Source of the DNA: a virus
UHGV virus genome: UHGV-0067929
Direction: 5' to 3' (one strand)
DNA: 41,007 nucleotides
Made by a program: the position numbers and the translations under genes. Of this stretch, positions 2,282 to 39,936 are shown piece by piece (the first letter of the stretch is position 1; each line of letters opens with the position of its first letter). Under the pieces are notes generated by a model, which saw nothing but the letters and a program-made list of their open reading frames with translations, was not told where the DNA came from and searched no databases.

Positions 2282-3099
2282 ACGTACATATCCTGTTTAC
2301 GTGCCCAGTCAGGGCGTTTAATAATTTCCACTCCGCCCCACTCATCGTTGATGCGGCATTCGTGATAGGTATTCAGATCCCGGCGGAACAGAGCGTGCCC
2401 GGCATCGACATCCGGCGCATCCAGCTCGAACACGCGTACCGGATACCGACCACAATCAATGCTTTCGCTCACGGCAAGAAAGAAAAAACCATGTGGCTGA
2501 CCAGTAACCCTCATTGCGCCTTCGCGGTACATTGCGTCCTGCACGTGGTAGCGGAACTCCTCGATGTGGCGTGCAAAACGGTCCATATCTGCAACCTTTT
2601 TCACGTCGACGATCACGTTGTGCTCGTTCAGCCATTTGTCTGGACGAATTCGGCACAACTCACCCGTATCTTCATCGTTCCAGTACATTGATGCTTCGCA
2701 GTAACCAGGTGCTTCCAACATCCAGCGTGCCGCCGGGTGAGCCATTGCGCTATCACGCATCAGCTCCAGTTTTCGCCACTGCTCTGCATCAAGTACCGAA
2801 ATCCCCATATCCGCTACATCACGAATAAATGCCTCTTCGTCAGCTTTACCTTGTTTTGTCCGACGATCGAATTTCGGTGAAACGATGAAGCGTTTGTCAA
2901 ACTCTCCAGGTTCCAGAAGCAGACAGTGCAGAGCAGTACCCATGTCCAGTGCAGACTTCTTCTCTTCGTCTTCCGGAGCAGCCTTCACCCATTTCAGAAG
3001 GGCAGGGTTCTTAGCCACCATATCTAGCTGCGACTTACTCACGCCGTCACCGGCGTGGTAGTCCTCGTTGCTGATATCGAAATAAATTCCCGGATTCAT
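2278..3099 (-). CDS. PD-(D/E)xK family exonuclease (recombination partner of the annealase)
   Basis: 273 aa; GTALHCLLLE, RIRPDKWL and VIVDVKK motifs consistent with RecB-like nuclease fold; ATGA overlap with annealase start. Confidence 0.7.
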   Translation of the reverse strand: MNPGIYFDISNEDYHAGDGVSKSQLDMVAKNPALLKWVKAAPEDEEKKSALDMGTALHCLLLEPGEFDKRFIVSPKFDRRTKQGKADEEAFIRDVADMGISVLDAEQWRKLELMRDSAMAHPAARWMLEAPGYCEASMYWNDEDTGELCRIRPDKWLNEHNVIVDVKKVADMDRFARHIEEFRYHVQDAMYREGAMRVTGQPHGFFFLAVSESIDCGRYPVRVFELDAPDVDAGHALFRRDLNTYHECRINDEWGGVEIIKRPDWARKQDMYV

Positions 3100-3395
3100 G
3101 CCGCGTCCCTCTGCCCATCAATCTGATCAGCCAGATCCCAGCGGGCGATAATTGCCATTGCCTCGCGCCGGTAGGCATCCATTAGTTCTTCGAACTCAGG
3201 GCTGTCTTTAGCGGCCTCCAGTACTTCCTTGCGAACGCCTTTAACTGTTACAACGTCGAAAGTTGATGCCAGTTGATGAAGCCGGATACTCTCAATCAGT
3301 TCAACTTGTCGGTCATATAGCTGTTCTGACAGGCGGTAGTCCTTGTCGAATGCCAGCATGATTTTTTGAAGATTTTTCTGCTGATTAACGTTCAT
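3096..3395 (-). CDS. hypothetical early protein
   Basis: Start moved to second ATG (3395), which is preceded by GGAGGG with 6-nt spacing; translationally coupled to exonuclease. Confidence 0.5.
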   Translation of the reverse strand: MNVNQQKNLQKIMLAFDKDYRLSEQLYDRQVELIESIRLHQLASTFDVVTVKGVRKEVLEAAKDSPEFEELMDAYRREAMAIIARWDLADQIDGQRDAA

Positions 3396-3397
3396 TA

Positions 3398-3550
3398 TCA
3401 GCCCTCCCATATCTCGTTATCGTTGGCCACATCGCGAGCTTCTTTGCTGACGAAAGCCCACTTAATGCCTTCCTGTAAGGTGCGGAACTTCCAGCTCATG
3501 AATCCGCATGCAGTAACGCAGTACCAACCGTTGATGATTTTCCACTGCAT
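3398..3550 (-). CDS. small hypothetical protein (50 aa), first gene of leftward operon
   Basis: ORF below the track cutoff, MQWKIINGWYCVTACGFMSWKF...; GAGG 9 nt upstream of ATG; stop overlaps the SD of the next gene. Confidence 0.3.
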   Translation of the reverse strand: MQWKIINGWYCVTACGFMSWKFRTLQEGIKWAFVSKEARDVANDNEIWEG

Positions 3551-3630
3551 AACTTGTTACCTCGGTCTGTTACCGTTGAGGTAATAATTATGCGTATCTG
3601 GTTTGATGTCAATAGATATGAGTTAAAAAA

Positions 3631-3647
3631 ATTACCCGTTAGGTAAT
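3631..3647. promoter_or_regulatory. operator-like palindrome ATTACCCGTTAGGTAAT (early-left promoter region)
   Basis: Perfect 6-bp inverted arms, 5-bp spacer; between leftward operon start and repressor gene. Confidence 0.55.
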
Positions 3648-3703
3648 CGAATAGGCAATAAAAAAGCCGCCATAAGGCGGCTTACTTACTGAAAAATATG
3701 ATT

Positions 3704-4288
3704 TTATTGTTTGTTTTTTTCGTTCTGGTTGATGACAAATTCAATGTAACTTTCGATCTTTGCCTTCTCTGTTTCAGGTAACAATGCGTAGCGCGAGCGG
3801 TCATAGTTGATAGTTGCAGGGTCATGCGGATGGATCAGTAGTTCATATCCGTGACGCCCGAATGCAGATGCAACATTCTCCAGGGTGGAAATGGAAACGC
3901 TGACCTCATTGTTTAACAGGCGGCTTATTGTCACCTGGGCGACGCCGGATGCGCGGTGAAGTTTTCCCTGAGTTGAAAGGTCGCGGCTTTCACTCATCCA
4001 GCGTTCCAGGTTGTGAGCTGCCAGCTGACCAATGTCGCTTGGGCCGACAGGCTGAAAACCTTCCTGAGAAAGCGAGCGATCGATATCAAGCCAGTTACGG
4101 GGTTTATTGGCGGCAGCTTCAATTTTTCGCGCAACCTGGTCGCCGATAACCTTCTTGCCAAGAGCCCAGCGGTTTACCAGATTTGCCTGAGTTCCAAGTT
4201 TTTCTGCCATCCGCGTCTGAACACCATTGAATTCACGGTCGATCAAGTCGTTGAGATTTTGCCTGCGGACGTCCTGGATACTTTTCAT
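3704..4288 (-). CDS. CI-like prophage repressor with two HTH regions, no peptidase S24 domain
   Basis: 194 aa; HTH-like segments MAEKLGTQANLVNRW and SGVAQVTISRLLNNEVSVSISTLENVASAF; divergent from Cro-like gene with palindromic operators between. Confidence 0.65.
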   Translation of the reverse strand: MKSIQDVRRQNLNDLIDREFNGVQTRMAEKLGTQANLVNRWALGKKVIGDQVARKIEAAANKPRNWLDIDRSLSQEGFQPVGPSDIGQLAAHNLERWMSESRDLSTQGKLHRASGVAQVTISRLLNNEVSVSISTLENVASAFGRHGYELLIHPHDPATINYDRSRYALLPETEKAKIESYIEFVINQNEKNKQ

Positions 4289-4342
4289 TTTCTGGAAAAT
4301 CGCCTCATATATGAATCAGTAGATGATTCAATTTAAAGCAAT

Positions 4343-4359
4343 ATTACCCAACAGGTAAA
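4343..4359. promoter_or_regulatory. operator-like palindrome ATTACCCAACAGGTAAA (repressor/cro intergenic)
   Basis: Same ATTACC-N5-GGTAA pattern. Confidence 0.55.
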
Positions 4360-4381
4360 TGCACCTCATAGGTAACTATCC

Positions 4382-4410
4382 TTGATTTTTGTTACCTTAT
4401 GGGTGAATAT
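4382..4410 (+). promoter_or_regulatory. sigma70-like promoter for Cro-like gene
   Basis: TTGATT - 17 nt - GAATAT, 33 nt upstream of ATG 4443. Confidence 0.5.
4391..4407. promoter_or_regulatory. operator-like site GTTACCTTATGGGTGAA within spacer of cro promoter
   Basis: Imperfect copy; sits between -35 TTGATT (4382-4387) and -10 GAATAT (4405-4410). Confidence 0.5.
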
Positions 4411-4430
4411 TTATTATCTGAAATAAATAT
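4407..4430. promoter_or_regulatory. inverted repeat ATATTTAT-N8-ATAAATAT at cro 5' region
   Basis: 8-bp perfect arms overlapping the -10 and transcript start region. Confidence 0.35.
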
Positions 4431-4442
4431 CAGGCAATAGCT

Positions 4443-4673
4443 ATGAGCGATAACGGACATTTCGATTTCAAAAAGCACTGGCTTGCACTTACTCCGGATG
4501 AGCGTGAAGCCTTCGCACAGGAAGCCGGAACGACGAGTCACTATATCCAGACTCACTTAACAGGTAAGCGCAAAATGCCAGGTAAGGTATTGATGAATGG
4601 GCTTTTTAAAGCCTGTAAAACAAGACAATGGCTGCGCTCAAAAGCGGAACTGGCATACTTCTTCTACTCATGA
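4443..4673 (+). CDS. Cro-like small DNA-binding regulator
   Basis: 76 aa; position divergent from repressor, own promoter with operator in spacer; followed by an intrinsic terminator. Confidence 0.55.
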   Translation: MSDNGHFDFKKHWLALTPDEREAFAQEAGTTSHYIQTHLTGKRKMPGKVLMNGLFKACKTRQWLRSKAELAYFFYS

Positions 4674-4695
4674 TATCTGGCAACAACCCTCTGTA

Positions 4696-4717
4696 GACCG
4701 CCATCCGGCGGTCTTTT
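4696..4717 (+). terminator. intrinsic terminator after Cro-like gene
   Basis: GACCGCC-ATCC-GGCGGTC then TTTT. Confidence 0.6.
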
Positions 4718-4727
4718 CATATCTATT

Positions 4728-4744
4728 CGTACCTCAAAGGTAAT
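4728..4744. promoter_or_regulatory. operator-like site CGTACCTCAAAGGTAAT
   Basis: Half-site GGTAAT intact, left arm degenerate; upstream of replication genes. Confidence 0.4.
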
Positions 4745-4823
4745 AAAAAACCAAATCTGGTTGATCTTTTTTTTGTGTCAGCACAAAATGACCGTAATCC
4801 CAATACTAATAACAGGGCTTACC

Positions 4824-5024
4824 ATGGAAATCATTACACGTATTGATGCCGCAAAGCGCGGACTTAAACGCTACTACACCGGAAAAACATGTAAGCACGG
4901 ACATGACAGTGAACGCTGGGTTTACAACGGACACTGTGTTGAGTGCACCATGGAATCAAACCGTCGTATCAGGGCAGAGATTAAGCAGATCATGATTAAT
5001 TCCTCCCCACAACATTCAAGCTGA
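4824..5024 (+). CDS. small Cys/His-rich (zinc-ribbon-like) protein
   Basis: CKHGH...HCVEC spacing; start chosen at ATG 4824, the track TTG start at 4761 lacks support. Confidence 0.35.
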   Translation: MEIITRIDAAKRGLKRYYTGKTCKHGHDSERWVYNGHCVECTMESNRRIRAEIKQIMINSSPQHSS

Positions 5025-5039
5025 TAGCGGAGATTAATC

Positions 5040-5855
5040 ATGAGCAGACATGCAACAGATTGGGCCTGGGAGACAGATCCAGGTAGCTCGTCATTAAAGC
5101 TCATACTGCTCTCGATGGCTGACAGAGCCGATGAATATAACCTCTGCTACCCCAGCATAGAACGCCTCGTTAAAGACACTTGCCTGAATAAAAAAACCGT
5201 GCAGGCCGGGCTTATATCGCTCATGAAAATGGGGCTTATTTCAGATACCGGAGAGAGAAAGGGAGCGACGAAAAGAGTGCGGGTTTTCTCTCTTAATATA
5301 ACCAAAAAAGGGAACATTAAAGGCAACCTAGAAGGACGTAATGAACCCGAAAACGGTAATGTTCCCGAAAACGGGAATATACCCAAAAACGGGATGTTGA
5401 ATGATCCCAAAAACGGGATGTTGAATGATCCCAAAAACGGGATCCAGAACCAGTCATATAACCAGTCATTTAACCAAGAGAGGGAGAGCAGGACAAAAAG
5501 CGGGGATTCTGTGCCTCATGACCCCGGAGCAAACAACGCCGTGATGAATAACTTTGTTCCTCCTGGTGGGCCAGGGCAATTAGGAAAATTTGTCATGCAT
5601 GAACAATGGCAGCCATCAGATGACTTTCTTCGGAAAAGCTCATTGCAGGGGATCTACCTGGACAGTCTGCCAACGGCACAGGAACTTGCAGAGTTCAGAA
5701 TTTACTGGATGGCTGAGGGTAAGGCATACCATCAGGCACAGTGGGAGCAGAAGCTGGCAAGGCGGCTGCAGATTAGCAGACAGAAGCAATCAACATTACC
5801 TGATAACAACGTTCCGCACTGGAACAGCCCTGAAGCATGGGAGGATTTCTTGTGA
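5040..5855 (+). CDS. replication initiation protein (lambda O analogue; N-terminal winged-helix, DnaT-like C-terminus)
   Basis: 271 aa; position before P-like gene; central linker encoded by tandem iterons; C-terminal WQPSDDFL...EFRIYWMAEG...QWEQKL pattern. Confidence 0.7.
   Translation: MSRHATDWAWETDPGSSSLKLILLSMADRADEYNLCYPSIERLVKDTCLNKKTVQAGLISLMKMGLISDTGERKGATKRVRVFSLNITKKGNIKGNLEGRNEPENGNVPENGNIPKNGMLNDPKNGMLNDPKNGIQNQSYNQSFNQERESRTKSGDSVPHDPGANNAVMNNFVPPGGPGQLGKFVMHEQWQPSDDFLRKSSLQGIYLDSLPTAQELAEFRIYWMAEGKAYHQAQWEQKLARRLQISRQKQSTLPDNNVPHWNSPEAWEDFL
5346..5444. repeat. iteron array inside replication initiator gene (candidate ori)
   Basis: Five direct repeats CCC(G/A)AAAACGG(T/G)A at 5346, 5364, 5382, 5406, 5430 (spacing 18,18,24,24), followed by CCAGTCAT-TAACC doublet. 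Confidence 0.6.
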
Positions 5856-12692: not shown

Positions 12693-12802
12693 GATCTCAC
12701 CTTAAAAAAATGCCCGGCGAACTTGGCGAACTGGAAGCAATGAGTTATGCCTTCCGTGGCTGTACTGGTTTACAGCATGAAGTCATCACAATGGCGTCCT
12801 GC

Positions 12803-12890: not shown

Positions 12891-12967
12891 TGGCGTGGCA
12901 TGCAGGATTCGAACCTGCGACCAACTGCTTAGAAGGCGGTTGCTCTGTCCAACTGAGCTAATGCCAC
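12891..12967 (-). tRNA. tRNA-Arg (anticodon UCU), phage-borne argU-like
   Basis: 77-nt cloverleaf read by hand: 7-bp acceptor stem GTGGCAT/ATGCCAC, D-arm TAGCTCAGTTGGACAGAGC, anticodon loop CTTCTAA, T-arm GCAGGTTCGAATCCTGC, CCA end; one C-A mismatch in anticodon stem. Confidence 0.8.
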
Positions 12968-29373: not shown

Positions 29374-29382
29374 GGAACAACA

Positions 29383-29796
29383 ATGAAGGAATTATTGCTG
29401 TTATCGGTATTTTTGATATCCGCTTGCTCGACATCCTATGATGTTTATGACGGTGTTGATAAGGCATATTGCGACAAAGTTAAAATGGATTTTTCTCTTG
29501 CCAAGACGGCGAAGGATAGTTGTATTGATCACTACGTCAAGACTTATACCAAGCCAGCATCATCGGCATCTGATATTGCTGAAGGTGCTGTGTTTGAGTG
29601 TAACAAGGTGATATCCATCGCAGCGAGTTCTTCATACGATGCTGCTGTATGTGCAATGGCTGAAAGAAACGGCATGTCAGTGCAAAAAGTTAATAGCATG
29701 ATAAACAGTAATGACGAAGCCAAAATAAGAACTGATATCAGCTCGGTGAAAAAAGATGCCATGAACAGAGTTGTAAAATATCAGTCATCTTTATAA
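29383..29796 (+). CDS. lipoprotein (moron; candidate superinfection-exclusion factor)
   Basis: Signal peptide with lipobox LISAC; low GC compared with flanks; five further Cys in mature part. Confidence 0.6.
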   Translation: MKELLLLSVFLISACSTSYDVYDGVDKAYCDKVKMDFSLAKTAKDSCIDHYVKTYTKPASSASDIAEGAVFECNKVISIAASSSYDAAVCAMAERNGMSVQKVNSMINSNDEAKIRTDISSVKKDAMNRVVKYQSSL

Positions 29797-29799
29797 GTC

Positions 29800-29811
29800 G
29801 TGACATGTCAC
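29800..29811. repeat. 12-bp perfect palindrome GTGACATGTCAC (copy c)
   Basis: Junction between lipoprotein gene and Bro island, next to terminator hairpin. Confidence 0.6.
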
Positions 29812-29812
29812 A

Positions 29813-29835
29813 GGCCGCAAAAGCGGCCTTGTTTT
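29813..29835 (+). terminator. intrinsic terminator after lipoprotein gene
   Basis: GGCCGC-AAAA-GCGGCC then TTGTTTT. Confidence 0.6.
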
Positions 29836-29853
29836 AACGAATGCCACCGCCCG

Positions 29854-30540
29854 TCAGAAGAACCCTGCTTTGTCGTTGATGTACTCCGCGTGCGTCTGGA
29901 TATCACGCAGGCATTTGTTCACACCGACGATGTAGCAGAACATGGTGGTCAACTCCGCCGCCGCGCCCGATACGTCGTGCCCGTCGTCCTGTAACTGGTT
30001 CAGCAGATTCATCAGCAGTGAGTTCTCCGTCAGGCCGAGAACACCAGACGGCGAGTGAATCAGGCTGCGGTAGCCGGGCTTCAGTGGGGCGCTGTAGGTT
30101 TTGTTCTCTATCTTCATTGCCTGCATCACTGCTGATGCTGTGGCGTTGGCTACTTGGTCGGCAACCATCTTTATGCGTTCTTCCTGCGGGAGCGAGTTTT
30201 TAATGTAACTTCCGGTGCGGCGGATCTGAGGAAGAACCTCACCTGTAACCCATTTACGAAAGCGGTATGGGATAGTGCCTGGTGTCACCGCATCGCGGCA
30301 GCGGAGGATCAGTGTGTAGAGGCCTGACTCGTTGATAATATTGGTTTCGCCTTGACGGCCTAAGTTAAATTTAGCCCTTTCATCATCATCAAGAGATTTT
30401 ATTGACATAGTGGGGTTTGTCAGTTGAAGAGCTTTAATAACGTCTTTGGCAACAAACCAAGGATTTCCATCAATAACAATGGCTCGAATGGTTGCTTCTG
30501 ATTCAAAATGAAAAACAGATGGGGTTACGTTAGCAGTCAT
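29854..30540 (-). CDS. Bro-N domain antirepressor-like protein, paralogue 1
   Basis: Start set to ATG 30540 by alignment with paralogues (MTANVTPSVFHFE...IRAIVIDGNPWFVAKDV Bro-N signature); constant C-terminal module shared with 31767-32459 and 33543-34238. Confidence 0.75.
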   Translation of the reverse strand: MTANVTPSVFHFESEATIRAIVIDGNPWFVAKDVIKALQLTNPTMSIKSLDDDERAKFNLGRQGETNIINESGLYTLILRCRDAVTPGTIPYRFRKWVTGEVLPQIRRTGSYIKNSLPQEERIKMVADQVANATASAVMQAMKIENKTYSAPLKPGYRSLIHSPSGVLGLTENSLLMNLLNQLQDDGHDVSGAAAELTTMFCYIVGVNKCLRDIQTHAEYINDKAGFF

Positions 30541-30770
30541 AGTGATCACCTTTGTAGTTAGGTTAATCACCACTACCGACGCCAATCGGTTGGTGGTGAA
30601 CTGTGCAGGGTTGGCGTAACCGGCTACAAAGGACCCGGCGCACCTTTCGGTGCCCCCACACAGCCCACCATAGAATAGGTGCGCTTTACACATAAAAAAA
30701 CCGCTTATGCGGCATATGTGCCTCTGTAGTAATCCGGGACGCCAATCCCGGCACTGGATTTTGCCAGTGC
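30541..30770 (-). ncRNA. structured leader RNA of Bro paralogue 1 (candidate c4-like regulatory RNA)
   Basis: Reverse-complement copy of the same leader; elements at 30721-30729 (mimic), 30624-30632 (anti-SD), 30549-30557 (SD). Confidence 0.45.
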
Positions 30771-30805
30771 CCGATTACTATGGCACAAGAGGAGTGCGAT
30801 GTAAA

Positions 30806-30822
30806 TTTACCGCAAGGGTAAT
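30806..30822. promoter_or_regulatory. operator-like palindrome TTTACCGCAAGGGTAAT at Bro paralogue 1 leader promoter
   Basis: Abuts -35 TTTACA (minus strand). Confidence 0.5.
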
Positions 30823-30968
30823 AATAGACACAGGTGGATATTAAAATCAACCATATTTGGTTAAGGTGTATAAAAGAGCCACCAGCGAGAAATTGTACCG
30901 CGATGTAAAATAACGAGCATCTGCTGGCTTACAACCAGCGATGTTTCAAATTTGTCACTACTATCAAC

Positions 30969-31367
30969 GTGCCATTCCACGGCGCAGAACTTTATGTTGT
31001 CAATCACAACGGAGAACCGTACACCCCAATGAAACCTATCGTTGAGGGAATGGGTATGGATTGGGCTGCTCAATTTGTTAAATTAAAACAGAGATTTGTC
31101 AAAGGTATTTCGGAAATCGAAATACCTTCTGCTGGCGGTAAACAGTTAATGATATGCCTTGCCTTTCGTAAGTTTGCGGCTTGGCTTTCAAGCATTCAGC
31201 CAAACAAAGTCCGTCCTGAAATCCGCGACAAGGTAATCCAGTATCAGGAAGAGTGTGACGATGTGCTCTACGAGTACTGGACTAAAGGCCATGTGGTTAA
31301 CCCACGCAAAGCTAAAAAGGCGTTGCCGGGTAAAATAACCACTGAACAGCAGGAGGTTTACACTTAA
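30969..31367 (+). CDS. phage antirepressor-like domain protein (Ant N-terminal-type), possibly 5'-truncated
   Basis: FHGAELYVVNHNGEPYTPMKPIVEGMGMDW...RKFAAWL...QEECDDVLYEYW; only a GTG start with no SD, no in-frame ATG upstream. Confidence 0.4.
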   Translation: MPFHGAELYVVNHNGEPYTPMKPIVEGMGMDWAAQFVKLKQRFVKGISEIEIPSAGGKQLMICLAFRKFAAWLSSIQPNKVRPEIRDKVIQYQEECDDVLYEYWTKGHVVNPRKAKKALPGKITTEQQEVYT

Positions 31368-31391
31368 CACTTGATTACATTAACACAAAAT

Positions 31392-31408
31392 ATTACCTTA
31401 AAGGTAAT
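31392..31408. promoter_or_regulatory. operator-like palindrome ATTACCTTAAAGGTAAT
   Basis: Perfect arms. Confidence 0.55.
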
Positions 31409-31484
31409 ATCTTGCTTTCAGGTGATCAAGCGTTAAACGCAATCAACCAAATACGGTTGATTTTAATGTTTCTTCGCGCTTATC

Positions 31485-31501
31485 ATTACCTTTACGGTAA
31501 A
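31485..31501. promoter_or_regulatory. operator-like palindrome ATTACCTTTACGGTAAA at Bro paralogue 2 leader promoter
   Basis: Abuts -35 TTTACA at 31502-31507. Confidence 0.55.
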
Positions 31502-31530
31502 TTTACATCGCACTCCTCTTGTGCCATAGT
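31502..31530 (+). promoter_or_regulatory. sigma70-like promoter of Bro paralogue 2 leader
   Basis: TTTACA - 17 nt - (TGc)CATAGT extended -10. Confidence 0.45.
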
Positions 31531-31536
31531 AATCGG

Positions 31537-31766
31537 GCACTGGCAAAATCCAGTGCCGGGATTGGCGTCCCGGATTACTACAGAGGCACATATGCCGCAT
31601 AAGCGGTTTTTTTATGTGTAAAGCGCACCTATTCTATGGTGGGCTGTGTGGGGGCACCGAAAGGTGCGCCGGGTCCTTTGTAGCCGGTAAGACCAACTCT
31701 GCACAGTTCACCACCATCTGATTGGTCTCAGCGGTGGTGATTAACCTAACTACAAAGGTGATCGCC
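31537..31766 (+). ncRNA. structured leader RNA of Bro paralogue 2 (candidate c4-like regulatory RNA)
   Basis: From predicted TSS: two GC hairpins (31536-31573), SD mimic CTACAGAGG (31578-31586), hairpin+U7 (31594-31613), GAAA-capped hairpin (31654-31667), anti-SD CCTTTGTAG in a loop (31675-31683), 8-bp hairpin (31708-31740), SD CTACAAAGG (31750-31758). Confidence 0.45.
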
Positions 31767-32459
31767 ATGAATACCAAACCTTCCATCTTTTCCTTTGAGT
31801 CATCCTGCCAGATCCGTATGTTCATGATTGACGGAGAACCTTGGTTTGTCACCAAAGATGTGTGCAATGCTTTGAATATTGATGTTACACAAGCGAGAAA
31901 ACTTGATAAAAAAGGCTGGAACAAAAAGGGGCTGTATTCAATACAGACCCCTGGTGGAATACAAGAACTATCCATAGTTTCAGAATCAGGTCTCTACATC
32001 CTTATTCTGCGTTGCAAAGAGGCAATGACTGAGGGAACGAGAGCATTCAGATTTCTTGAATGGGTTACAGGTGAGGTTCTTCCTCAGATCCGCCGCACCG
32101 GAAGTTACATTAAAAACTCGCTCCCGCAGGAAGAACGCATAAAGATGGTTGCCGACCAAGTAGCCAACGCCACAGCATCAGCAGTGATGCAGGCAATGAA
32201 GATAGAGAACAAAACCTACAGCGCCCCACTGAAGCCCGGCTACCGCAGCCTGATTCACTCGCCGTCTGGTGTTCTCGGCCTGACGGAGAACTCACTGCTG
32301 ATGAATCTGCTGAACCAGTTACAGGACGACGGGCACGACGTATCGGGCGCGGCGGCGGAGCTGACCACCATGTTCTGTTACATCGTCGGTGTGAGCAAGT
32401 GCCTGCGTGATATCCAGACCCACGCGGAGTACATCAACGACAAGGCAGGGTTCTTCTGA
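31767..32459 (+). CDS. Bro-N domain antirepressor-like protein, paralogue 2
   Basis: MNTKPSIFSFESSCQIRMFMIDGEPWFVTKDV Bro-N signature; SD CTACAAAGG 9 nt upstream; C-terminal ~145 aa near-identical to paralogues. Confidence 0.75.
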   Translation: MNTKPSIFSFESSCQIRMFMIDGEPWFVTKDVCNALNIDVTQARKLDKKGWNKKGLYSIQTPGGIQELSIVSESGLYILILRCKEAMTEGTRAFRFLEWVTGEVLPQIRRTGSYIKNSLPQEERIKMVADQVANATASAVMQAMKIENKTYSAPLKPGYRSLIHSPSGVLGLTENSLLMNLLNQLQDDGHDVSGAAAELTTMFCYIVGVSKCLRDIQTHAEYINDKAGFF

Positions 32460-32495
32460 CGGCGGCGGCACAGGGATGTGCCTTTAAATAATCCT
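32063..32495 (+). repeat. ~0.43-kb repeat R2 (3' half of Bro paralogue 2), inverted relative to R1/R3
   Basis: Reverse complement of 33543-33960 region with few mismatches. Confidence 0.8.
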
Positions 32496-32529
32496 GTACG
32501 ATTGCAGACCGGGGGGTGAATAGAGTACT

Positions 32530-32546
32530 ATTACCTTACGGGTGAT
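32530..32546. promoter_or_regulatory. operator-like site ATTACCTTACGGGTGAT
   Basis: Upstream of leader peptide/membrane protein unit. Confidence 0.45.
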
Positions 32547-32582
32547 CCATAGCGATTAGGCACCGATACAGGAGGAGCCCAC

Positions 32583-32615
32583 ATGAGAAAATTTGACGAG
32601 TACGAAGGCGTTTAA
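32583..32615 (+). CDS. candidate 10-codon leader peptide (MRKFDEYEGV)
   Basis: ATG 5 nt after GGAGGAG, stop 18 nt before an 8-bp GC hairpin with U-tract. Confidence 0.3.
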   Translation: MRKFDEYEGV

Positions 32616-32633
32616 CATTCGGATAGTTTAATG

Positions 32634-32657
32634 ACGGGGCCATCAGGCCCCGTTTTC
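32634..32657 (+). terminator. attenuator-like hairpin between leader peptide and membrane protein gene
   Basis: ACGGGGCC-ATCA-GGCCCCGT then TTTTC. Confidence 0.5.
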
Positions 32658-32674
32658 ATGTCTGGAGACAGTTT

Positions 32675-33214
32675 GTGTTAAGTGAAGAAATGCAATTTGC
32701 CATGGCTGTGGCTCAAATCGTAAGTGCAGTCGCGGTTTCGCTTGGCTTGTTCATAGCTATCGCTACTATTATTTATAATGTAAATACAGCGAGAAAAGTA
32801 CACACTTCAGTATTCCTTGGTGAAAGCAGGTTTGATGTAGATTATAAGAAAGGCCTATCTACTATGCGCCGCATTCACGAGTCGAACAAATCATTCCGCT
32901 CTTATATGTATCCAAGCAATGGGCAGGCTGATCTTACGGATGAAGAAAAGATAGAGAAGAGAGAAATAATTTACTGTCTAGGTTTCTACGAACGCATGGC
33001 TGTGAGCGTGAAGCGGAAAACTTATGATGAGACCATGATTAAGGAAGTATTTTACAGCTCCGTTGTAAATAACTATCAGATTGCGCTACCTCTTATACAA
33101 GCTATTAGAGAAAAAGAAAACATAAACACATATTTTAAAGAATATGAATGGTTGGCCACACGATGGAAGGATTGTCCATTGAAGGATAAATCCCCGTGGT
33201 ACAAGTTTTGGTAA
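32675..33214 (+). CDS. membrane-anchored protein of unknown function (AT-rich moron)
   Basis: N-terminal hydrophobic helix (AMAVAQIVSAVAVSLGLFIAIATIIY) then ~140-aa soluble domain; markedly AT-rich coding region; followed by terminator. Confidence 0.6.
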   Translation: MLSEEMQFAMAVAQIVSAVAVSLGLFIAIATIIYNVNTARKVHTSVFLGESRFDVDYKKGLSTMRRIHESNKSFRSYMYPSNGQADLTDEEKIEKREIIYCLGFYERMAVSVKRKTYDETMIKEVFYSSVVNNYQIALPLIQAIREKENINTYFKEYEWLATRWKDCPLKDKSPWYKFW

Positions 33215-33236
33215 GCCCGCAGCGCGGGCTTTTTTG
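33215..33236 (+). terminator. intrinsic terminator after membrane protein gene
   Basis: GCCCGC..GCGGGC then TTTTTTG. Confidence 0.6.
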
Positions 33237-33307
33237 TGGATGAAACAAAAGTCAGTGCTACACTCATTGACGCCACATTGAGATGGCTTATAGATGGAAA
33301 TCTCACA

Positions 33308-33469
33308 ATGAAAAAAGCATTTGCTGCACTGTTCGTTTTGTTGTCTCTGGTGGCTTCAACTCAGGCCTCTGCTGGTCGTTGTCAGCACGACAGCGACACT
33401 GCTGCTGACGGCTCCCGCTGCGGCGGGCGTTCTGCGGATTCCCGCCCGGGTGGCGGTGGCATTCGTTAA
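33308..33469 (+). CDS. small secreted Cys-containing peptide (53-aa precursor)
   Basis: Canonical signal peptide MKKAFAALFVLLSLVASTQASA with AxA site; promoter-like TTGACG-N16-TATAGA upstream. Confidence 0.45.
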   Translation: MKKAFAALFVLLSLVASTQASAGRCQHDSDTAADGSRCGGRSADSRPGGGGIR

Positions 33470-33491
33470 AAACAAGGCCGCGAAAGCGGCC
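33468..33491 (-). terminator. terminator downstream of Bro paralogue 3
   Basis: GGCCGC-GAAA-GCGGCC followed on minus strand by TTGTTTTT. Confidence 0.5.
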
Positions 33492-34021
33492 TGTGACATG
33501 TCACGATAGTTCCGTTTTGCACATCCCTGTGCCGCCGTTCTGTCAGAAGAACCCTGCCTTGTCGTTGATGTACTCCGCGTGGGTCTGGATATCACGCAGG
33601 CACTTGCTCACACCGACGATGTAACAGAACATGGTGGTCAGCTCCGCCGCCGCGCCCGATACGTCGTGCCCGTCGTCCTGTAACTGGTTCAGCAGATTCA
33701 TCAGCAGTGAGTTCTCCGTCAGGCCGAGAACACCAGACGGCGAGTGAATCAGGCTGCGGTAGCCGGGCTTCAGTGGGGCGCTGTAGGTTTTGTTCTCTAT
33801 CTTCATTGCCTGCATCACTGCTGATGCTGTGGCGTTGGCTACTTGGTCGGCAACCATCTTTATGCGTTCTTCCTGCGGGAGCGAGTTTTTAATGTAACTT
33901 CCGGTGCGGCGGATCTGAGGAAGAACCTCACCTGTAACCCATTTACGAAAGCGGTAGGGGATAGTTCCTGGTGTCACAGCATCGCGGCAGCGGAGGATCA
34001 GTGTGTAGAGGCCTGACTCGG
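33492..34021 (-). repeat. ~0.5-kb repeat R3 (3' half and 3' UTR of Bro paralogue 3)
   Basis: Direct repeat of R1, 3.7 kb apart. Confidence 0.8.
33493..33504. repeat. 12-bp perfect palindrome GTGACATGTCAC (copy d)
   Basis: Other flank of the Bro island core, next to terminator hairpin. Confidence 0.6.
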
Positions 34022-34238
34022 AGATGATGATCGATTCTTGCTCACCGCCAGGGGTGTCGGTTGAAGCGACGCCCTTCTCATCATCATCAAGTTTTCGAAC
34101 AGCATCTCGATGGTTTGCTATGCCTATAGCCCGACAAACATCTGAAGCGATAAACCATGGCTCACCATTAATGACGATTACTCGTATATCGCCTTGGGAT
34201 TCGAAAGAAAAAATGGACGTGCTTTTTGTAGCTGTCAT
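33543..34238 (-). CDS. Bro-N domain antirepressor-like protein, paralogue 3
   Basis: MTATKSTSIFSFESQGDIRVIVINGEPWFIASDV; SD CTAAAAGG; constant C-terminal module. Confidence 0.75.
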   Translation of the reverse strand: MTATKSTSIFSFESQGDIRVIVINGEPWFIASDVCRAIGIANHRDAVRKLDDDEKGVASTDTPGGEQESIIISESGLYTLILRCRDAVTPGTIPYRFRKWVTGEVLPQIRRTGSYIKNSLPQEERIKMVADQVANATASAVMQAMKIENKTYSAPLKPGYRSLIHSPSGVLGLTENSLLMNLLNQLQDDGHDVSGAAAELTTMFCYIVGVSKCLRDIQTHAEYINDKAGFF

Positions 34239-34468
34239 AGTGGTTACCTTTTAGTCTGGTTAATCACCACTACCGACGCCAATCGGTTGGTGGTGAACTG
34301 TGCAGGGTTGGCGTAACCGGCTAAAAGGACCCGGCGCACCTTTCGGTGCCCCCACACAGCCCACCATAATACGAATGTGGCCGTGCTATACGCATAAAAA
34401 AACCGCTTGCGCGGTGAATGCGCCTTTTAGTAATCCGGGACGCCAATCCCGGCACTGGATTTTGCCAG
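34239..34468 (-). ncRNA. structured leader RNA of Bro paralogue 3 (candidate c4-like regulatory RNA, variant specificity)
   Basis: Same architecture; elements at 34423-34430 (mimic CTAAAAGG), 34321-34328 (anti-SD CCTTTTAG), 34247-34254 (SD CTAAAAGG), all changed in concert. Confidence 0.45.
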
Positions 34469-34506
34469 TGCCTGATTACTATGGCACAAGAGGAGTGCGA
34501 TGTAAA

Positions 34507-34523
34507 TTTACCGCAAAGGTAAA
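34507..34523. promoter_or_regulatory. operator-like palindrome TTTACCGCAAAGGTAAA at Bro paralogue 3 leader promoter
   Basis: Same position relative to leader as 30806 and 31485 copies. Confidence 0.5.
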
Positions 34524-34553
34524 TATAAGCACTCCGCTTGGTAATTGCAAACC

Positions 34554-34826
34554 TTATCTGGTTTGCTTTCGTAATTGTTCGGCACAATAGTCGAGATGTG
34601 TTTGCAGATCCTGCATAGACATCTGTGAGCTGGTGACGTAGTTAATCAGTGCAGTCAGTTCGGCAAGTGGGCCATCGACATTAAATCCATCCTTATCGAG
34701 ATCCCGGAGTAATTTCATCAAGTGCGATCCCTCCACCAGTGACCTGACGCCTCCCGGCGTGTGAATCCTTTCGGTAAATCCGTCTTCCAGTGGATAGTGA
34801 TACTGCTGCATCTTAATCTTCTCCAT
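34554..34826 (-). CDS. stand-alone homologue of the Bro paralogue C-terminal module
   Basis: 90 aa; RIHTPGGVRSLVEGSHLMKLLRDLDKDGFNVDGPLAELTAL...DLQTHLDY aligns with LIHSPSGVLGLTENSLLMNLLNQLQDDGHDVSGAAAELTTM...DIQTHAEY. Confidence 0.5.
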   Translation of the reverse strand: MEKIKMQQYHYPLEDGFTERIHTPGGVRSLVEGSHLMKLLRDLDKDGFNVDGPLAELTALINYVTSSQMSMQDLQTHLDYCAEQLRKQTR

Positions 34827-34887
34827 GCAATAACTGTATATTTATACAGTAGCAAATAATTTGTTTGCTATCCAGCACGTTTTGCAA

Positions 34888-34904
34888 ATTACCTGAAAGG
34901 TAAT
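34888..34904. promoter_or_regulatory. operator-like palindrome ATTACCTGAAAGGTAAT between C-module gene and tailspike
   Basis: Perfect arms in divergent promoter region. Confidence 0.55.
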
Positions 34905-35007
34905 ATCTATTCATATTCACAGTCTTTCTATCCATATGTGGTTTTTCAGGTAATAGAATAACCAGATATGCGGCGCAACGGGTGCTGCGACTATCTGGAG
35001 ATTTAAC

Positions 35008-37023
35008 ATGACGGTCTCAACCGAAGTTGACCACAACGAATACACAGGTAACGGCGTTACGACATCATTTCCGTACACCTTCCGTATTTTCAAAAAATCC
35101 GACCTGGTTGTTCAGGTGTCTGACCTGAACGGGAACGTAACAGAATTGGTTCTGGATACCGGTTATACGGTAACTGGGGCGGGCACTTATAGTGGCGGTT
35201 CTGTTGTTCTTCCGTCGCCGCTTGCTGCTGGATGGCGAATTACGATAGATCGTGTGCTTGATGTAGTGCAGGAGACAGACCTTCGCAATCAGGGAAAGTT
35301 TTTCCCCGAAGTGCATGAAGATGCCTTTGACTACCTGACGATGCTGATCCAGCAATGTTTTGGGTGGTTCAGACGTGCATTGATGAAACCATCTTTGCTT
35401 GCAAAATATTACGATGCAAAGCAAAACAGAATTTCTAACCTTGCAGATCCATCACTTGAGCAGGACGCTGTAAATAATCGCTCAATGCGTAATTATGTCG
35501 ATGCTGCAATCGCCGGAGTTGTTGGTGGTTTTGGTTGGTTTATTCAGTATGGTTCAGGCGCGGTATATAGAACGTTTCAGGATAAGATGCGGGATACTGT
35601 CAGTGTTCTTGACTTTGGCGCTAAAGGTGATGGAGTCACAAATGATACAGATGCTTTCATTGCCGCGGCATCTGCTTCGCCACAAGGTGTTTATGTTCCT
35701 GATGGCACGTATTTATTGCCGGAAGATATTAATGGAAGATTTTATGGCCCAGGAAAAATAATTAAAGAGACAGGAGCGGAACGAATTCCGTTTACCAATG
35801 TAGCTCAGTCTCATAGCAACCTTATTTTAGGTTATGATGCCGCAAAAAATTACACTGACTCTGGTAAAGGTAATCAATTGGTTTTGCTTGGACCAAGTTC
35901 TGGTCGCAACATAACTAGCGGCACTAACACAATCGTGGTTGGTGTGGGTGGTTTGTCAGGAGATACTCTAGAAGATGATCTTACAGATAAGTCGCCATTT
36001 TCTGGAACAGAGATTATCAGTATAGGTATTAATGCTTTGAAGAAAGCCACCACTGGAAATAACATGATTGGTATTGGCAGGGATGCGCTAAACGAGTGTA
36101 AGGATGGTAGGTTCAATGTTGCAGTTGGTATGTCAGCTTTGCAGCAACTCCATTCTGGAGAAGCTAATGTTGCAATAGGACGCTCTGCAGGAATGCGTAC
36201 TGGCATCTACACAGACCCTCAAGGTGTACGTCTTGGGTATAATAAATGTAATGGAAATACCCTTATTGGTAATGCAGCTGGTAGGGAGTTAAAGCAAGGT
36301 GATCATAACACAGCTATAGGTAATGGAGCATTGCGAGGAGTATCATCAACAGAGAACCCATACACTGGGACTCTCACAGGTAATTTTAATACAGCAATTG
36401 GTGTTGATGCTCTCAATTCCCTATCCTCAGGTGACCTGAATGTTATGATAGGAGCAAGAGCAGGAAGAAAATTACCAACTGGAAATGGTAATATTTTTAT
36501 AGGTCCAGATGCTGGTGCCGGAATATCAGAAGATACCTCCAATAAATTCATTGTAAATAATCACAAAGGATTGCCTTTTTTAGAAGGTGTTATGGGAGGC
36601 GCACAAGCGGAAGATAACTATTTGCGTATAGATGGTAGTGTTGCCCCCCAGATAGATAATCAAAGAACTTGTGGTCAATCTAGTCGTAGATGGCAAACTG
36701 TCTTTGCAACTAATGGTGTAATACAAACATCTGACGGTAGATGTAAAGATGTGTATGAGATATCTACGGCAGAGTATAGTGCAGGGCTAGAATTAGCCAT
36801 TAGCATGATAAAGTTTAAATGGACAGATGCAGAATCTGATAAGTATCACTTCGGATGTATGGCTCAAGAAGTAATGCTGATTATGGAGAAATATAATCTT
36901 AACCCTACAGACTATTCTCTGGTTACTTATGATAAAGAATCGGATATGTATGGTGTAAATTACGCTGACTTATCTTGTTTCTGTATTGCCGCTATGTCTA
37001 AACATTTATTACGAAGTGCGTAA
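35008..37023 (+). CDS. tailspike protein (conserved N-terminal particle-binding domain, beta-helix, C-terminal peptidase S74 intramolecular chaperone)
   Basis: DFGAKGDGVTNDTDAF pectate-lyase-like motif; C-terminal SDGRCKDV...FKW...HFGCMAQEV...VNYADL chaperone-domain pattern. Confidence 0.85.
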   Translation: MTVSTEVDHNEYTGNGVTTSFPYTFRIFKKSDLVVQVSDLNGNVTELVLDTGYTVTGAGTYSGGSVVLPSPLAAGWRITIDRVLDVVQETDLRNQGKFFPEVHEDAFDYLTMLIQQCFGWFRRALMKPSLLAKYYDAKQNRISNLADPSLEQDAVNNRSMRNYVDAAIAGVVGGFGWFIQYGSGAVYRTFQDKMRDTVSVLDFGAKGDGVTNDTDAFIAAASASPQGVYVPDGTYLLPEDINGRFYGPGKIIKETGAERIPFTNVAQSHSNLILGYDAAKNYTDSGKGNQLVLLGPSSGRNITSGTNTIVVGVGGLSGDTLEDDLTDKSPFSGTEIISIGINALKKATTGNNMIGIGRDALNECKDGRFNVAVGMSALQQLHSGEANVAIGRSAGMRTGIYTDPQGVRLGYNKCNGNTLIGNAAGRELKQGDHNTAIGNGALRGVSSTENPYTGTLTGNFNTAIGVDALNSLSSGDLNVMIGARAGRKLPTGNGNIFIGPDAGAGISEDTSNKFIVNNHKGLPFLEGVMGGAQAEDNYLRIDGSVAPQIDNQRTCGQSSRRWQTVFATNGVIQTSDGRCKDVYEISTAEYSAGLELAISMIKFKWTDAESDKYHFGCMAQEVMLIMEKYNLNPTDYSLVTYDKESDMYGVNYADLSCFCIAAMSKHLLRSA

Positions 37024-39103: not shown

Positions 39104-39286
39104 CATGGCATTTTTCATGGTACTGATTTCCGGTGACGGTATATAAAACGGTACGGTGAAAATCATGTTGCAGGAAGTTGTTATCAGTCAATTGGTTATG
39201 GTATCCGTAAATAATTGAGTGGGAATAAACCCGAACACTAAATGCTGAGGTTTTCTATTCGTACGAGGCTTCAGCATATTTTGGTA

Positions 39287-39921: not shown

Positions 39922-39936
39922 GAGTCCTCCTGATAG

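Follow-up and report, generated by a model that had tools for sequence, protein, structure and literature searches.

The immunity repressor (Rep) of the prophage studied here is very probably unlocked by a small antirepressor, Ant, that is under SOS/LexA control, with the Bro genes of the same prophage forming a second layer. The analyzed stretch of DNA (the window) comprises 41,007 nucleotides of the UHGV virus genome UHGV-0067929. The principle is already known: non-cleavable repressors that are switched off by antirepressors under LexA control have been established for this genus of phages, and the complex has a crystal structure. A preliminary description of the same DNA had proposed induction through antirepressor binding with a trigger other than LexA; this idea was largely right, although already known, and the exclusion of LexA was wrong. 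The circuit is directly supported by the homologies of Rep and Ant to both chains of the PDB entry 5D50, the absence of a peptidase S24 domain from Rep, the LexA box, the co-occurrence of Rep and Ant, and the RNA elements of the Bro leaders with their complementarity. By analogy, the steps known from phage SPC32H would also operate for the present Rep, and the Bro layer would have the role proposed below.

The repressor gene and the domain layout of its product are as follows.

3704..4288, minus strand: rep, immunity repressor of 194 aa, ATG start (open reading frame listing and Pfam)
Rep, about residues 1-70: N-terminal HTH
Rep, residues 71-88: variable linker
Rep, about residues 89-150: second HTH
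Rep, about residues 151-190: C-terminal tetramerisation/Ant-binding domain

According to the analysis in Pfam, Rep contains the HTH_3 domain (E=1.2e-9) in two stretches, of which residues 106-147 are the best, and a weaker HTH-type match (YdaS_toxin/DUF739) is located at its N-terminus (residues 20-61). NCBIfam gave HTH-type matches only, all of them sub-threshold. These matches and the reading frame at 3704-4288 on the minus strand bear out the previously reported 194-aa repressor with two HTH-like segments. The protein is 100% identical to the repressors of phages phiV10 and vB_EcoP_ZX5 (ZX5). Residues 1-190 align with residues 2-197 of the chain 5D50_A, named "Repressor" (E=4e-42), and the PDB entry 5D4Z was also matched. 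5D50 is Rep of the Salmonella phage SPC32H solved in complex with Ant. Rep of SPC32H is 42% identical to the present protein end to end, with 54% in the N-terminal HTH, 34% in the second HTH, and 48% in the C-terminal domain. In the family alignment, the proportion of invariant positions is 47% in the N-terminal HTH, 32% in the second HTH, 32% in the C-terminal domain, and 0% in the linker, and an alignment of Rep from six phages shows an invariant NLVNRW helix and invariant C-terminal motifs AFG..YE/I.YD..Y..LP..EK.KI. The structure model of Rep built from the single sequence has a mean pLDDT of 45, too low to be informative. From its sequence, we identify the 194-aa protein as the immunity repressor of a prophage of the phiV10/epsilon15 type (Uetakevirus) and as the ortholog of SPC32H Rep; the alignments indicate that it is an ordinary member of a structurally solved repressor family.

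As for self-cleavage, no match to Peptidase_S24 was found in Rep using Pfam down to E<=1, and a scan of the sequence for cleavage and catalytic features revealed no Ala-Gly, Cys-Gly, Cys or G-x-S-M motif. Only 47 residues are left after the second HTH. The absence of an S24 signature, claimed in the preliminary description, is confirmed by these results, and no cryptic S24 domain was detected by Pfam and NCBIfam. The SPC32H Rep, as reportedly found by Kim & Ryu in 2013, stays uncleaved during SOS.

The following features were identified at the locus of the small antirepressor.

34554..34811, minus strand: ant, small antirepressor of 85 aa (homology to SPC32H Ant, 5D50_E and phrog_450)
34832..34851, just upstream of ant: LexA (SOS) box AACTGTATATTTATACAGTA, 18/20 to consensus
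34889..34903, in the gap between ant and the tailspike gene: palindrome ATTACC-N5-GGTAAT, candidate Rep operator

Ant is 88% identical to Ant of SPC32H and shows high similarity to 5D50_E (E=4.4e-47) and phrog_450 (E=3e-48); its identity is 97.6% to the phiV10 protein and 100% to that of ZX5. An alternative upstream in-frame ATG at 34826 gives a product of 90 aa, and GGAG is located at 34822-34819. The gene occupies a syntenic position upstream of the tailspike gene, on the opposite strand, and both Rep and Ant were present in 35 of the 36 phage records. The LexA box includes a perfect CTGT-N8-ACAG (34834-34849) and lies about 10 nt upstream of the ant ribosome-binding site. At 18/20, it is the one match in the window, with 0.00 expected. 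The box is kept at the same ant offset in 8/8 related phages aligned (perfect in six, and with one mismatch in two Klebsiella phages), and across relatives it is the sole conserved CTGT-N8-ACAG site. Two further copies of this motif, at 12760 and 17302, were read as chance occurrences: their spacers include GC, and neither has an equivalent in SPC32H or epsilon15. Read by eye, a candidate ant promoter (TGGATA-17-TACTGT) is conserved but weak, and the -35 and -10 elements of the gene have no confident assignment.

It was stated earlier that the Bro leaders contain no CTGT-N8-ACAG, and this is literally true, as only near-matches with one mismatch occur there, in the GC-rich stems of C4. The conclusion that the trigger would be at the RNA level rather than LexA is not supported, as the near-consensus LexA box at ant had been overlooked. 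Antirepressor-driven induction stands insofar as the Rep family is inactivated by Ant binding (5D50), with the operative SOS-responsive antirepressor most likely being the 85-aa Ant and not the Bro-N proteins. Because Rep and Ant are homologous to the known pair, the LexA box is conserved and the two genes co-occur, the order of events is expected to run from SOS through LexA cleavage and Ant to Rep disassembly.

Candidate sites of Rep action and the associated promoters were located mainly around rep.

3570..3584: TTACC-N5-GGTAA palindrome, candidate Rep operator (equivalent sites "repressor/lysogeny" in the epsilon15 annotation)
3584..3612, minus strand: predicted leftward early promoter TTGACA-17-AATTAT (consensus match; putative function)
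3632..3646: TTACC-N5-GGTAA palindrome, candidate Rep operator (equivalent sites "repressor/lysogeny" in the epsilon15 annotation)
3664..3683, minus strand: intrinsic terminator 3' of rep (equivalent annotated in phiV10)
4344..4358: palindrome between rep and the cro-like gene, candidate Rep operator
4392..4406: palindrome with one mismatch, sharing positions with the -35/spacer of the rightward promoter predicted at 4389-4417
4443..4673, plus strand, divergent from rep: cro-like small regulator of 76 aa (phrog_35 "transcriptional repressor", E=5.6e-13)
34508..34522: palindrome directly adjoining the -35 of the cassette 3 isrK promoter

The palindromes at 3570-3584 and 3632-3646 bracket the predicted leftward early promoter. 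In total, the window contains 16 matches to the palindrome versus 0.85 expected, all of them intergenic or at promoters, and the same enrichment was observed in SPC32H. The palindrome in the gap between ant and the tailspike gene is invariant in 8/8 phages, and the same site of epsilon15 is annotated as "repressor". We infer that the TTACC-N5-GGTAA palindromes are Rep operators, as predicted sites. Phages whose Reps differ by 58% share identical candidate operators, which does not account for immunity specificity.

In the proposed circuit, a Rep tetramer would shut the early promoters, with its N-terminal HTH domains placed, by homology, on the TTACC-N5-GGTAA palindromes. Rep itself would be unable to self-cleave, and host LexA would occupy the near-consensus SOS box that overlaps the ant promoter region. 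Upon DNA damage, active RecA would lead to LexA self-cleavage and to the production of Ant. The Ant tetramer would then bind the C-terminal domains of Rep, splitting the Rep tetramer into dimers that would be poor DNA binders, and the early promoters would fire.

Published data agree with several of these steps. For SPC32H, two papers describe Rep as binding DNA in the form of a tetramer that is broken by Ant (PMC9638917) and assign both tetramerisation and Ant binding to the C-terminal domain of Rep (PMC9986798). A review that cites Kim & Ryu 2013 states that induction of Salmonella prophages is driven by LexA-controlled antirepressors (PMC7380047). The identical Rep of ZX5 blocks lytic growth (PMC9782041), exposure to a DNA-damaging microcin gave 21- to 47-fold induction of prophages of the phiV10 species (bioRxiv 10.64898/2026.05.26.727859), and TL-2011b, whose Rep is 98.5% identical to the present one, showed abundant release after mitomycin C (PMC3293862). 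Since ZX5 lysogens spontaneously release 10^7 PFU/mL (PMC9782041), SOS-independent routes also exist.

The three Bro-N cassettes of the accessory region, and a further antirepressor-like fragment, have the following composition.

29854..30540, minus strand: bro1, Bro-N with Ant-like C-terminal domain (Pfam Bro-N, E=8e-20)
30589..30821, minus strand: cassette 1 leader (palindrome 30807-30821, promoter 30777-30805, isrK 30694-30770)
30589..30675, minus strand: cassette 1 C4, a' ACGCCAA, b' CCUUUGUAG
30969..31367, plus strand: P22-type Ant remnant, N-terminal domain only (Pfam P22_AR_N, E=8e-42)
31486..31718, plus strand: cassette 2 leader (palindrome 31486-31500, promoter 31502-31530, isrK 31537-31613)
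31632..31718, plus strand: cassette 2 C4, a' AGACCAA, b' CCUUUGUAG
31767..32459, plus strand: bro2, Bro-N with Ant-like C-terminal domain, 230 aa (Pfam Bro-N, E=2e-13)
33543..34238, minus strand: bro3, Bro-N fused to SPC32H-Ant-like C-terminal domain, 231 aa (Pfam Bro-N, E=2e-21)
34247..34282, minus strand: cassette 3 C4 targets, a2 UUGGCGU (34282-34276) and b2 CUAAAAGG (34254-34247)
34286..34371, minus strand: cassette 3 C4 antisense RNA (RF01695, 77.7 bits), a' ACGCCAA, b' loop CCUUUUAG
34396..34471, minus strand: cassette 3 isrK-type sRNA with terminator (Rfam RF01394, 77.9 bits)
34478..34506, minus strand: TG-extended promoter TTTACA-17-CATAGT predicted for cassette 3, with 7 nt between its end and the isrK 5' end

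Mosaicism and repeats are pronounced in the accessory region. The Pfam matches confirm the presence of three Bro-N antirepressor-like genes noted in the preliminary description. The encoded proteins Bro1, Bro2, and Bro3 show 81%, 80%, and 99% identity to ORF4 of ZX5, respectively, and a small upstream ORF in frame with bro1 gives a 279-aa ORF reaching 30693. Bro3 is 42% identical to Ant (E=1e-16), and its residues 150-226 match 5D50_E (E=1.9e-13). The Ant-like ORF mentioned in the same description does exist and contains P22_AR_N. It aligns to residues 13-143 of the 314-aa Ant of TL-2011b and lacks P22_AR_C, and it was rejected as a working antirepressor since it is truncated to the N-terminal domain of P22 Ant.

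The same promoter element was found in all three cassettes at a distance of 7 nt from each isrK 5' end, and a terminator hairpin follows isrK. In the three leaders, C4 scored 79.5, 77.7, and 74.0 bits (RF01695, gathering score 45), and the three copies of isrK scored 76.8-77.9 bits (RF01394, gathering score 50); isrK of cassette 3 overlaps a sub-threshold c4-a1b1 target element (34432-34484). The a' and b' segments of C4 are exact complements, 7-9 nt long, of targets at fixed offsets, and one target covers the ribosome-binding site; in cassette 3, the b2 target overlaps the Shine-Dalgarno sequence of Bro3. The loops and targets show compensatory changes between cassettes and in comparison with Gifsy-1. 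Because isrK and the C4 antisense RNA are present in each leader, the Bro genes are probably under RNA-level control, so this part of the earlier proposal holds, while its role as the induction trigger does not, given the LexA box at ant. Such control is predicted to be a second layer. Since the cassettes have palindrome-bearing promoters as well as isrK and C4 leaders, the Bro genes would be expressed only with Rep off and C4 repression overcome. Their products could strengthen the switch or serve as anti-immunity factors during infection.

It is possible, although somewhat doubtful, that the circuit is organized in two tiers, with SOS-gated Ant starting induction and the three Bro-N::Ant-domain fusions, each with its own C4 lock, acting after it. 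Each fusion would be placed behind a Rep-operator promoter and a C4 lock with distinct a'/b' specificity. The fusions might provide commitment or positive feedback, or they might serve as anti-immunity factors or cross-prophage inducers with diversified Bro-N domains. The third Bro cassette immediately follows ant, in the same orientation, and could receive read-through transcription that starts at the LexA-controlled promoter. To our knowledge, there is no earlier description of a podovirus prophage with three antirepressors under partly orthogonal antisense gating. When 5,426 complete E. coli genomes were compared, coverage of the triple-cassette region reached >=80% in none, a measure made unreliable by the internal repeats.

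The preliminary description had favored the Bro-N proteins as primary inducers, with an RNA-level trigger (relief of antisense repression) independent of LexA. This is unlikely in view of the small Ant, which is under a conserved near-consensus LexA box and whose gene occurs in every relative. SPC32H and epsilon15 contain Rep and Ant but no Bro cassette at the locus, and the single Bro gene of phiV10 is frameshifted and lacks the Ant-like domain. In favor of this reading, each Bro gene has isrK and C4 and no LexA box in its leader, and the exact complementarity of the loop to the Shine-Dalgarno sequence co-varies between cassettes; against it, there is no evident signal that would relieve C4 repression, and the candidate Rep operator at the cassette promoters suggests that the Bro genes act downstream of Rep inactivation and not upstream. 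Further points in its favor are the Ant-like C-terminal domain in each of the Bro proteins, the effect of overexpressed ZX5 ORF4 (99% identical to Bro3), which cut lysogens from 10^9 to 10^6, about 1000-fold (PMC9782041), and the activation of antirepressor translation by IsrK in Gifsy-1 (PMC4825925).

A defective prophage or a decayed switch, in which rep, ant and the Bro genes would be remnants without working induction, is very improbable. One clear remnant, the N-terminal fragment of P22 Ant, is present in the window, and both the mosaic, repeated accessory region and the location of the integrase end of the prophage outside the window are compatible with decay. However, the ORFs of rep, ant, the cro-like gene, and all three Bro genes are intact, ZX5, which forms plaques, has a Rep and an Ant that are 100% identical to the present ones (as is the Rep of phiV10), the LexA box and operators are intact, and the structural and lysis ORFs are apparently uninterrupted. 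Inactivation of Rep by proteolysis, whether Rep cuts itself at a non-canonical site under RecA stimulation or is cut by an ImmA/IrrE-type partner protease, is hardly credible, and the analysis yielded nothing positive in its favor: work on DdrO/IrrE indicates that XRE-family repressors without S24 can be cut by partner metalloproteases (PMC6868357), but Rep lacks S24 and cleavage-site features, its entire chain aligns to a solved non-protease fold (5D50_A), the four ORFs flanking rep include no COG2856/M78 protease gene of the ImmR/ImmA or DdrO/IrrE type and have no protease domain (Pfam gave no matches, or weak sub-threshold unrelated ones), the inspected regulatory, early and lysis genes of phiV10 (record positions 18500-39104) include no annotated protease, so that a partner protease next to rep was rejected, and the review gives cleavage as not the major route (PMC7380047).

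The value of an SOS-gated Ant as the starting point of induction is corrective. Ant is annotated as "hypothetical" in the phiV10-group genomes, including phiV10, ZX5, and TL-2011b. In the experimental paper on the identical repressor, the Bro-N protein alone is credited with antirepression, the small Ant was outside the tests, and neither LexA nor SPC32H is mentioned (PMC9782041). When phiV10-type phages are engineered (e.g., E. coli O157 reporter phages), ant together with its SOS box is to be taken as the induction switch, and the same applies when the induction of prophages by DNA-damaging antibiotics is to be predicted. The triple RNA-gated cassette counts as a curiosity of modest weight; its three Bro::Ant-domain units with co-varying C4 loops and targets represent a compact system for orthogonal antisense control and antirepressor specificity.

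Rep shares the N-terminal HTH and the role of prophage master repressor with the peptidase S24 group (LexA, lambda CI, and P22 C2). Unlike these proteins, it has no S24 domain, cleavage site or Ser-Lys catalytic context, and its C-terminal part consists of the second HTH and a short tetramerisation domain.

Among the closest known systems is the Rep-Ant-LexA switch of SPC32H, reportedly described by Kim & Ryu (2013, J Virol) and Kim et al. (2016, PNAS). SPC32H belongs to the same genus and shares the gene order: a cro-like gene diverges from rep, and the tailspike gene is immediately preceded by ant, which is located on the other strand. The LexA box is at the same ant offset, and the operator-like palindrome is found at equivalent positions. 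In SPC32H, a terminator comes straight after ant, whereas here the isrK-C4-Bro cassette is next, without a terminator between them, and two further such cassettes lie nearby.

The present prophage shares with the E. coli phages phiV10 and ZX5 the integration site at the 3' end of guaA. In the window, the published 17-nt attP core had no match at <=1 mismatch, and a partial attachment core of 13 nt is located at 39213-39225. Each of these phages has one Bro cassette (that of phiV10 being frameshifted), whereas the window contains three in addition to the P22-Ant remnant. In the ZX5 experiments, lytic growth was blocked by the repressor, and lysogeny was lowered by the Bro protein (PMC9782041).

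The isrK-orf45-anrP locus of Gifsy-1 has the same RNA leader (isrK, C4, and the a1b1 element) upstream of an antirepressor gene, and the output studied there is the AntQ antiterminator (PMC4825925). A small nucleotide-conserved ORF over the C4 region is common to Gifsy-1 and the present cassettes. Bro3 showed no similarity to STM2616 of Gifsy-1, taken as the probable AnrP (E=23), so AnrP was rejected as a Bro homolog and the RNA leader alone is common.

In the immI locus of P1/P7 (c4 - icd - ant), the leader of the antirepressor gene likewise includes a C4 RNA (PMC12197685). As in the Bro cassettes, a' and b' of this RNA are complementary to targets in the same transcript, one of which is located over the ribosome-binding site. 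The heteroimmunity of P1 versus P7 results from specificity variants with compensatory changes (PMC12197685), as seen here between cassettes. In contrast to P1/P7, the only indication here that the primary repressor controls the cassette promoter is the adjacent palindrome, the cargo is a Bro-N::SPC32H-Ant-domain fusion and not P1 Ant, and three cassettes with three a'/b' combinations are present in one prophage.

The window contains most of a prophage of the phiV10/epsilon15 type (genus Uetakevirus). According to megablast, positions 3000-5100 match E. coli phages phiV10, vB_EcoP_ZX5 (ZX5), TL-2011b and others with 96–98% identity. At 39213-39225, ATTGAGTGGGAAT matches 13 nt of the published attP/attB core (guaA 3' end); this partial core marks the right end of the prophage. 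Beyond this junction, three minus-strand ORFs (180, 172 and 63 aa; 39379-40957) presumably resemble yfgI, yfgH and yfgG, which lie near guaA in E. coli. The core is consistent with insertion at the 3' end of guaA, the site reported for ZX5 (PMC9782041). A tRNA-Arg gene (anticodon TCT; 12891-12967, minus strand) lies in the late region, at a position shared with Salmonella phage SPC32H.

The immunity repressor (Rep) is encoded by a real ORF:
3704-4288, minus strand: Rep, 194 aa, ATG start

In tblastn, Rep shares 100% identity with the annotated repressors of phiV10, ZX5, phiv142-3 and others, 75–78% with those of Enterobacter phages Tyrion and BUCT554, and 42–45% with those of SPC32H, epsilon15 and Klebsiella phages. 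Its PHROGs families are all "transcriptional regulator/repressor". Pfam finds HTH_3 (E=1.2e-9) in two stretches, the best at residues 106-147, and a weaker HTH-type match at N-terminal residues 20-61. The preliminary description held that Rep lacks an S24 autocleavage domain, and this is confirmed: a Pfam search for a cryptic Peptidase_S24 domain gave no match even at E<=1, the sequence contains no Ala-Gly, Cys-Gly, Cys or G-x-S-M, and the 47 residues remaining after the second HTH could not accommodate an S24 domain. The repressor chain (A) of PDB 5D50, in which SPC32H Rep is bound to its antirepressor Ant, aligns to the whole Rep chain (residues 1-190, E=4e-42), and 5D4Z aligns to the C-terminal half. 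Since this structure is not a protease, a cryptic protease fold in Rep is excluded at the level of sequence homology. Pfam detected no partner protease among the four ORFs flanking rep, and the annotation of the phiV10 regulatory, lysis and early genes (record positions 18500-39104) lists none. Rep has every testable feature of the SPC32H Rep family and none of those of the S24 family.

Within the Rep family, 47% of positions in the N-terminal HTH are invariant, among them the NLVNRW recognition helix, against 32% in the second HTH, 32% in the C-terminal domain and 0% in the linker. This pattern agrees with the SPC32H-type model, in which, as stated in PMC9638917, the Rep tetramer binds DNA, the dimer binds only weakly, and an Ant tetramer disrupts the Rep tetramer, engaging two Rep dimers; the Rep C-terminal domain is stated to serve both tetramerisation and Ant binding (PMC9986798). 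In ZX5, overexpression of a repressor identical to Rep abolished free phage and lowered lysin and holin transcripts by >99.9% (PMC9782041).

The partner of Rep is also encoded in the window:
34554-34811, minus strand: Ant, small antirepressor, 85 aa (ORF 34554-34826, probable start 34811)
34832-34851: LexA (SOS) box, directly upstream of ant

Ant shows 88% identity to SPC32H Ant, matches 5D50 chain E (E=4.4e-47) and is encoded, as in SPC32H, by a minus-strand gene lying a short way upstream of the tailspike gene. It is encoded in 35 of the 36 phage records having a full-length Rep homolog and is far more conserved than Rep (62–86% vs 42–78%). The box, AACTGTATATTTATACAGTA, matches 18 positions of the 20-nt LexA consensus and is the sole such match in the window (0.00 expected). 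When the sequences upstream of ant were aligned, 8/8 phages had a box at an equal offset from the ant GGAG; six carry a perfect CTGT-N8-ACAG, and both Klebsiella phages deviate by one mismatch. Two other CTGT-N8-ACAG matches in the window have no conserved counterpart. This near-consensus, positionally conserved box contradicts the suggestion that LexA is not involved in induction. For SPC32H, Kim and Ryu reportedly observed no Rep cleavage in the SOS response, and one base change in the LexA box is said to make Ant production constitutive. PMC7380047, citing Kim & Ryu 2013, states that SPC32H Ant is produced once LexA has cleaved itself.

Based on the SPC32H literature, the conservation of the Rep family and independent biology, it is quite probable that the SOS response would cause LexA cleavage, which would permit Ant synthesis, and that Ant would then disassemble Rep. 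A DNA-damaging microcin induced prophages of the phiV10 species 21- to 47-fold (bioRxiv 10.64898/2026.05.26.727859), and mitomycin C caused abundant release of TL-2011b (PMC3293862), whose Rep is 98.5% identical to that of the window. The central claim of the preliminary description, a non-cleavable Rep with an antirepressor route, is correct, yet it is already established for Uetakevirus; the epsilon15 RefSeq record tags its repressor "HHpred: 5d50_A". The small Ant of the E. coli phiV10 group is less well documented, being annotated "hypothetical" and left unconsidered in the ZX5 study (PMC9782041).

The palindrome TTACC-N5-GGTAA occurs at 16 sites in the window (<=1 mismatch; 0.85 expected), all intergenic or at promoters, throughout the prophage and including late-gene fronts. 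We predict that these are Rep operators. Candidate operators include:
3570, 3632: either side of the predicted leftward early promoter
4344, 4392: rep-cro gap
34889: ant-tailspike gap
30807, 31486, 34508: each abutting the -35 of one Bro-cassette promoter
6675, 6737, 10082, 10100, 13290: ahead of gene blocks

The palindrome is likewise enriched at equivalent places in SPC32H, and the epsilon15 RefSeq record labels exactly such sites, e.g., attaccttacaggtaat, "repressor/lysogeny". The half-sites are identical among phages with Reps just 42% identical, which is odd for immunity specificity.

The three Bro-N genes and the ORF with a P22 Ant N-terminal domain, noted previously, are present:
29854-30540, minus strand: Bro1 (cassette 1); isrK + C4 leader 30589-30770, minus strand
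31767-32459, plus strand: Bro2 (cassette 2); leader 31537-31718, plus strand
33543-34238, minus strand: Bro3 (cassette 3); leader 34286-34471, minus strand
30969-31367, plus strand: truncated P22-type antirepressor, N-terminal domain alone

The C-terminal halves of the Bro proteins are nearly identical and their Bro-N domains differ. Homology to SPC32H-type Ant extends over the last ~80 residues (42% identity, E=1e-16; 5D50_E, E=1.9e-13; phrog_450). Each gene is preceded by a ~300-nt leader with a predicted promoter, an isrK-type sRNA with a terminator, and a C4 antisense RNA, every isrK and C4 call exceeding the Rfam gathering score. In all cassettes, two parts of C4 are matched by exact complements: the b' loop by 7–9 nt (b2) whose offset is fixed and which overlap the Bro Shine-Dalgarno sequence, and the a' segment by 7 nt (a2) a few bases beyond C4. 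Both pairs co-vary, with three loop combinations across the three cassettes and compensatory changes in the targets.

Antisense segments of C4 and their targets (a'/a2; b'/b2)
Cassette 3 (and phiV10): ACGCCAA / UUGGCGU; CCUUUUAG / CUAAAAGG
Cassette 1: ACGCCAA / UUGGCGU; CCUUUGUAG / CUACAAAGG
Cassette 2: AGACCAA / UUGGUCU; CCUUUGUAG / CUACAAAGG
Gifsy-1: ACGCCAA / UUGGCGU; CGGUGAU / AUCACCG

In cassette 2, the a1-like loop of isrK (31537-31613) is still UUGGCGU, while a' and a2 of C4 (31632-31718) have both changed; this IsrK is therefore predicted to pair better with C4 RNA from cassette 1 or 3.

RNA-level control of the Bro antirepressors is thus well supported, but we read it as a second layer; the proposal that induction is triggered by RNA and not by LexA is not supported. 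This reading is based on the candidate Rep operators at the cassette promoters, the lack of a Bro cassette at this locus in SPC32H and epsilon15, the frameshift in the sole phiV10 Bro-N gene (p23, L002 1147-1731) relative to Bro3 and ZX5 ORF4, and the location of cassette 3, which follows ant directly and is not separated from it by a terminator, so that LexA control could feed into it as well. The phiV10 p23 product lacks the Ant-like C-terminal domain. ZX5 ORF4 is 99% identical to Bro3, and its overexpression decreased lysogens ~1000-fold (PMC9782041). A layered circuit, with SOS-gated Ant as the first tier and RNA-gated Bro::Ant-domain fusions as the second, is proposed tentatively and seems rather doubtful.

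The accessory stretch that separates the virion genes from ant (29380-35010) is strongly mosaic across E. coli. Parts of it match 1,339 of 5,426 complete genomes, often beside a YafO toxin gene or a gene for a full P22-type Ant. Less well documented is the presence in one prophage of three Bro::Ant-domain cassettes that are RNA-gated and differ in C4 specificity; this arrangement was not found intact in these genomes (>=80% coverage of the region in 0/5,426), repeats making coverage unreliable. Between cassettes 2 and 3 lies a DUF4760 gene with its own terminator (32675-33214, plus strand; Pfam E=1.6e-30; phrog_2284, function unknown), probably a moron. A 137-aa ORF (29383-29796, plus strand) with a lipoprotein-like signal (…LISAC) and a phrog_8691 match stands where phiV10 and SPC32H carry a small integral membrane protein.

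As for known systems, the P22-type remnant aligns to residues 13-143 of the 314-aa TL-2011b Ant, which has an Arc-like repressor upstream that is absent from the window. A small orf45-like ORF overlaps the C4 3' half (34244-34357 and 29854-30693, minus strand); in cassette 3 it ends 5 nt short of the Bro3 ATG, and in cassette 1 its frame continues into Bro1, forming a 279-aa ORF. It is reminiscent of the ORF that serves translational coupling in Gifsy-1, where isrK-orf45-anrP has the same leader (PMC4825925), although AnrP itself is unrelated to the Bro proteins. The C4 pairing follows the same logic as the c4-ant control of P1/P7 (PMC12197685).
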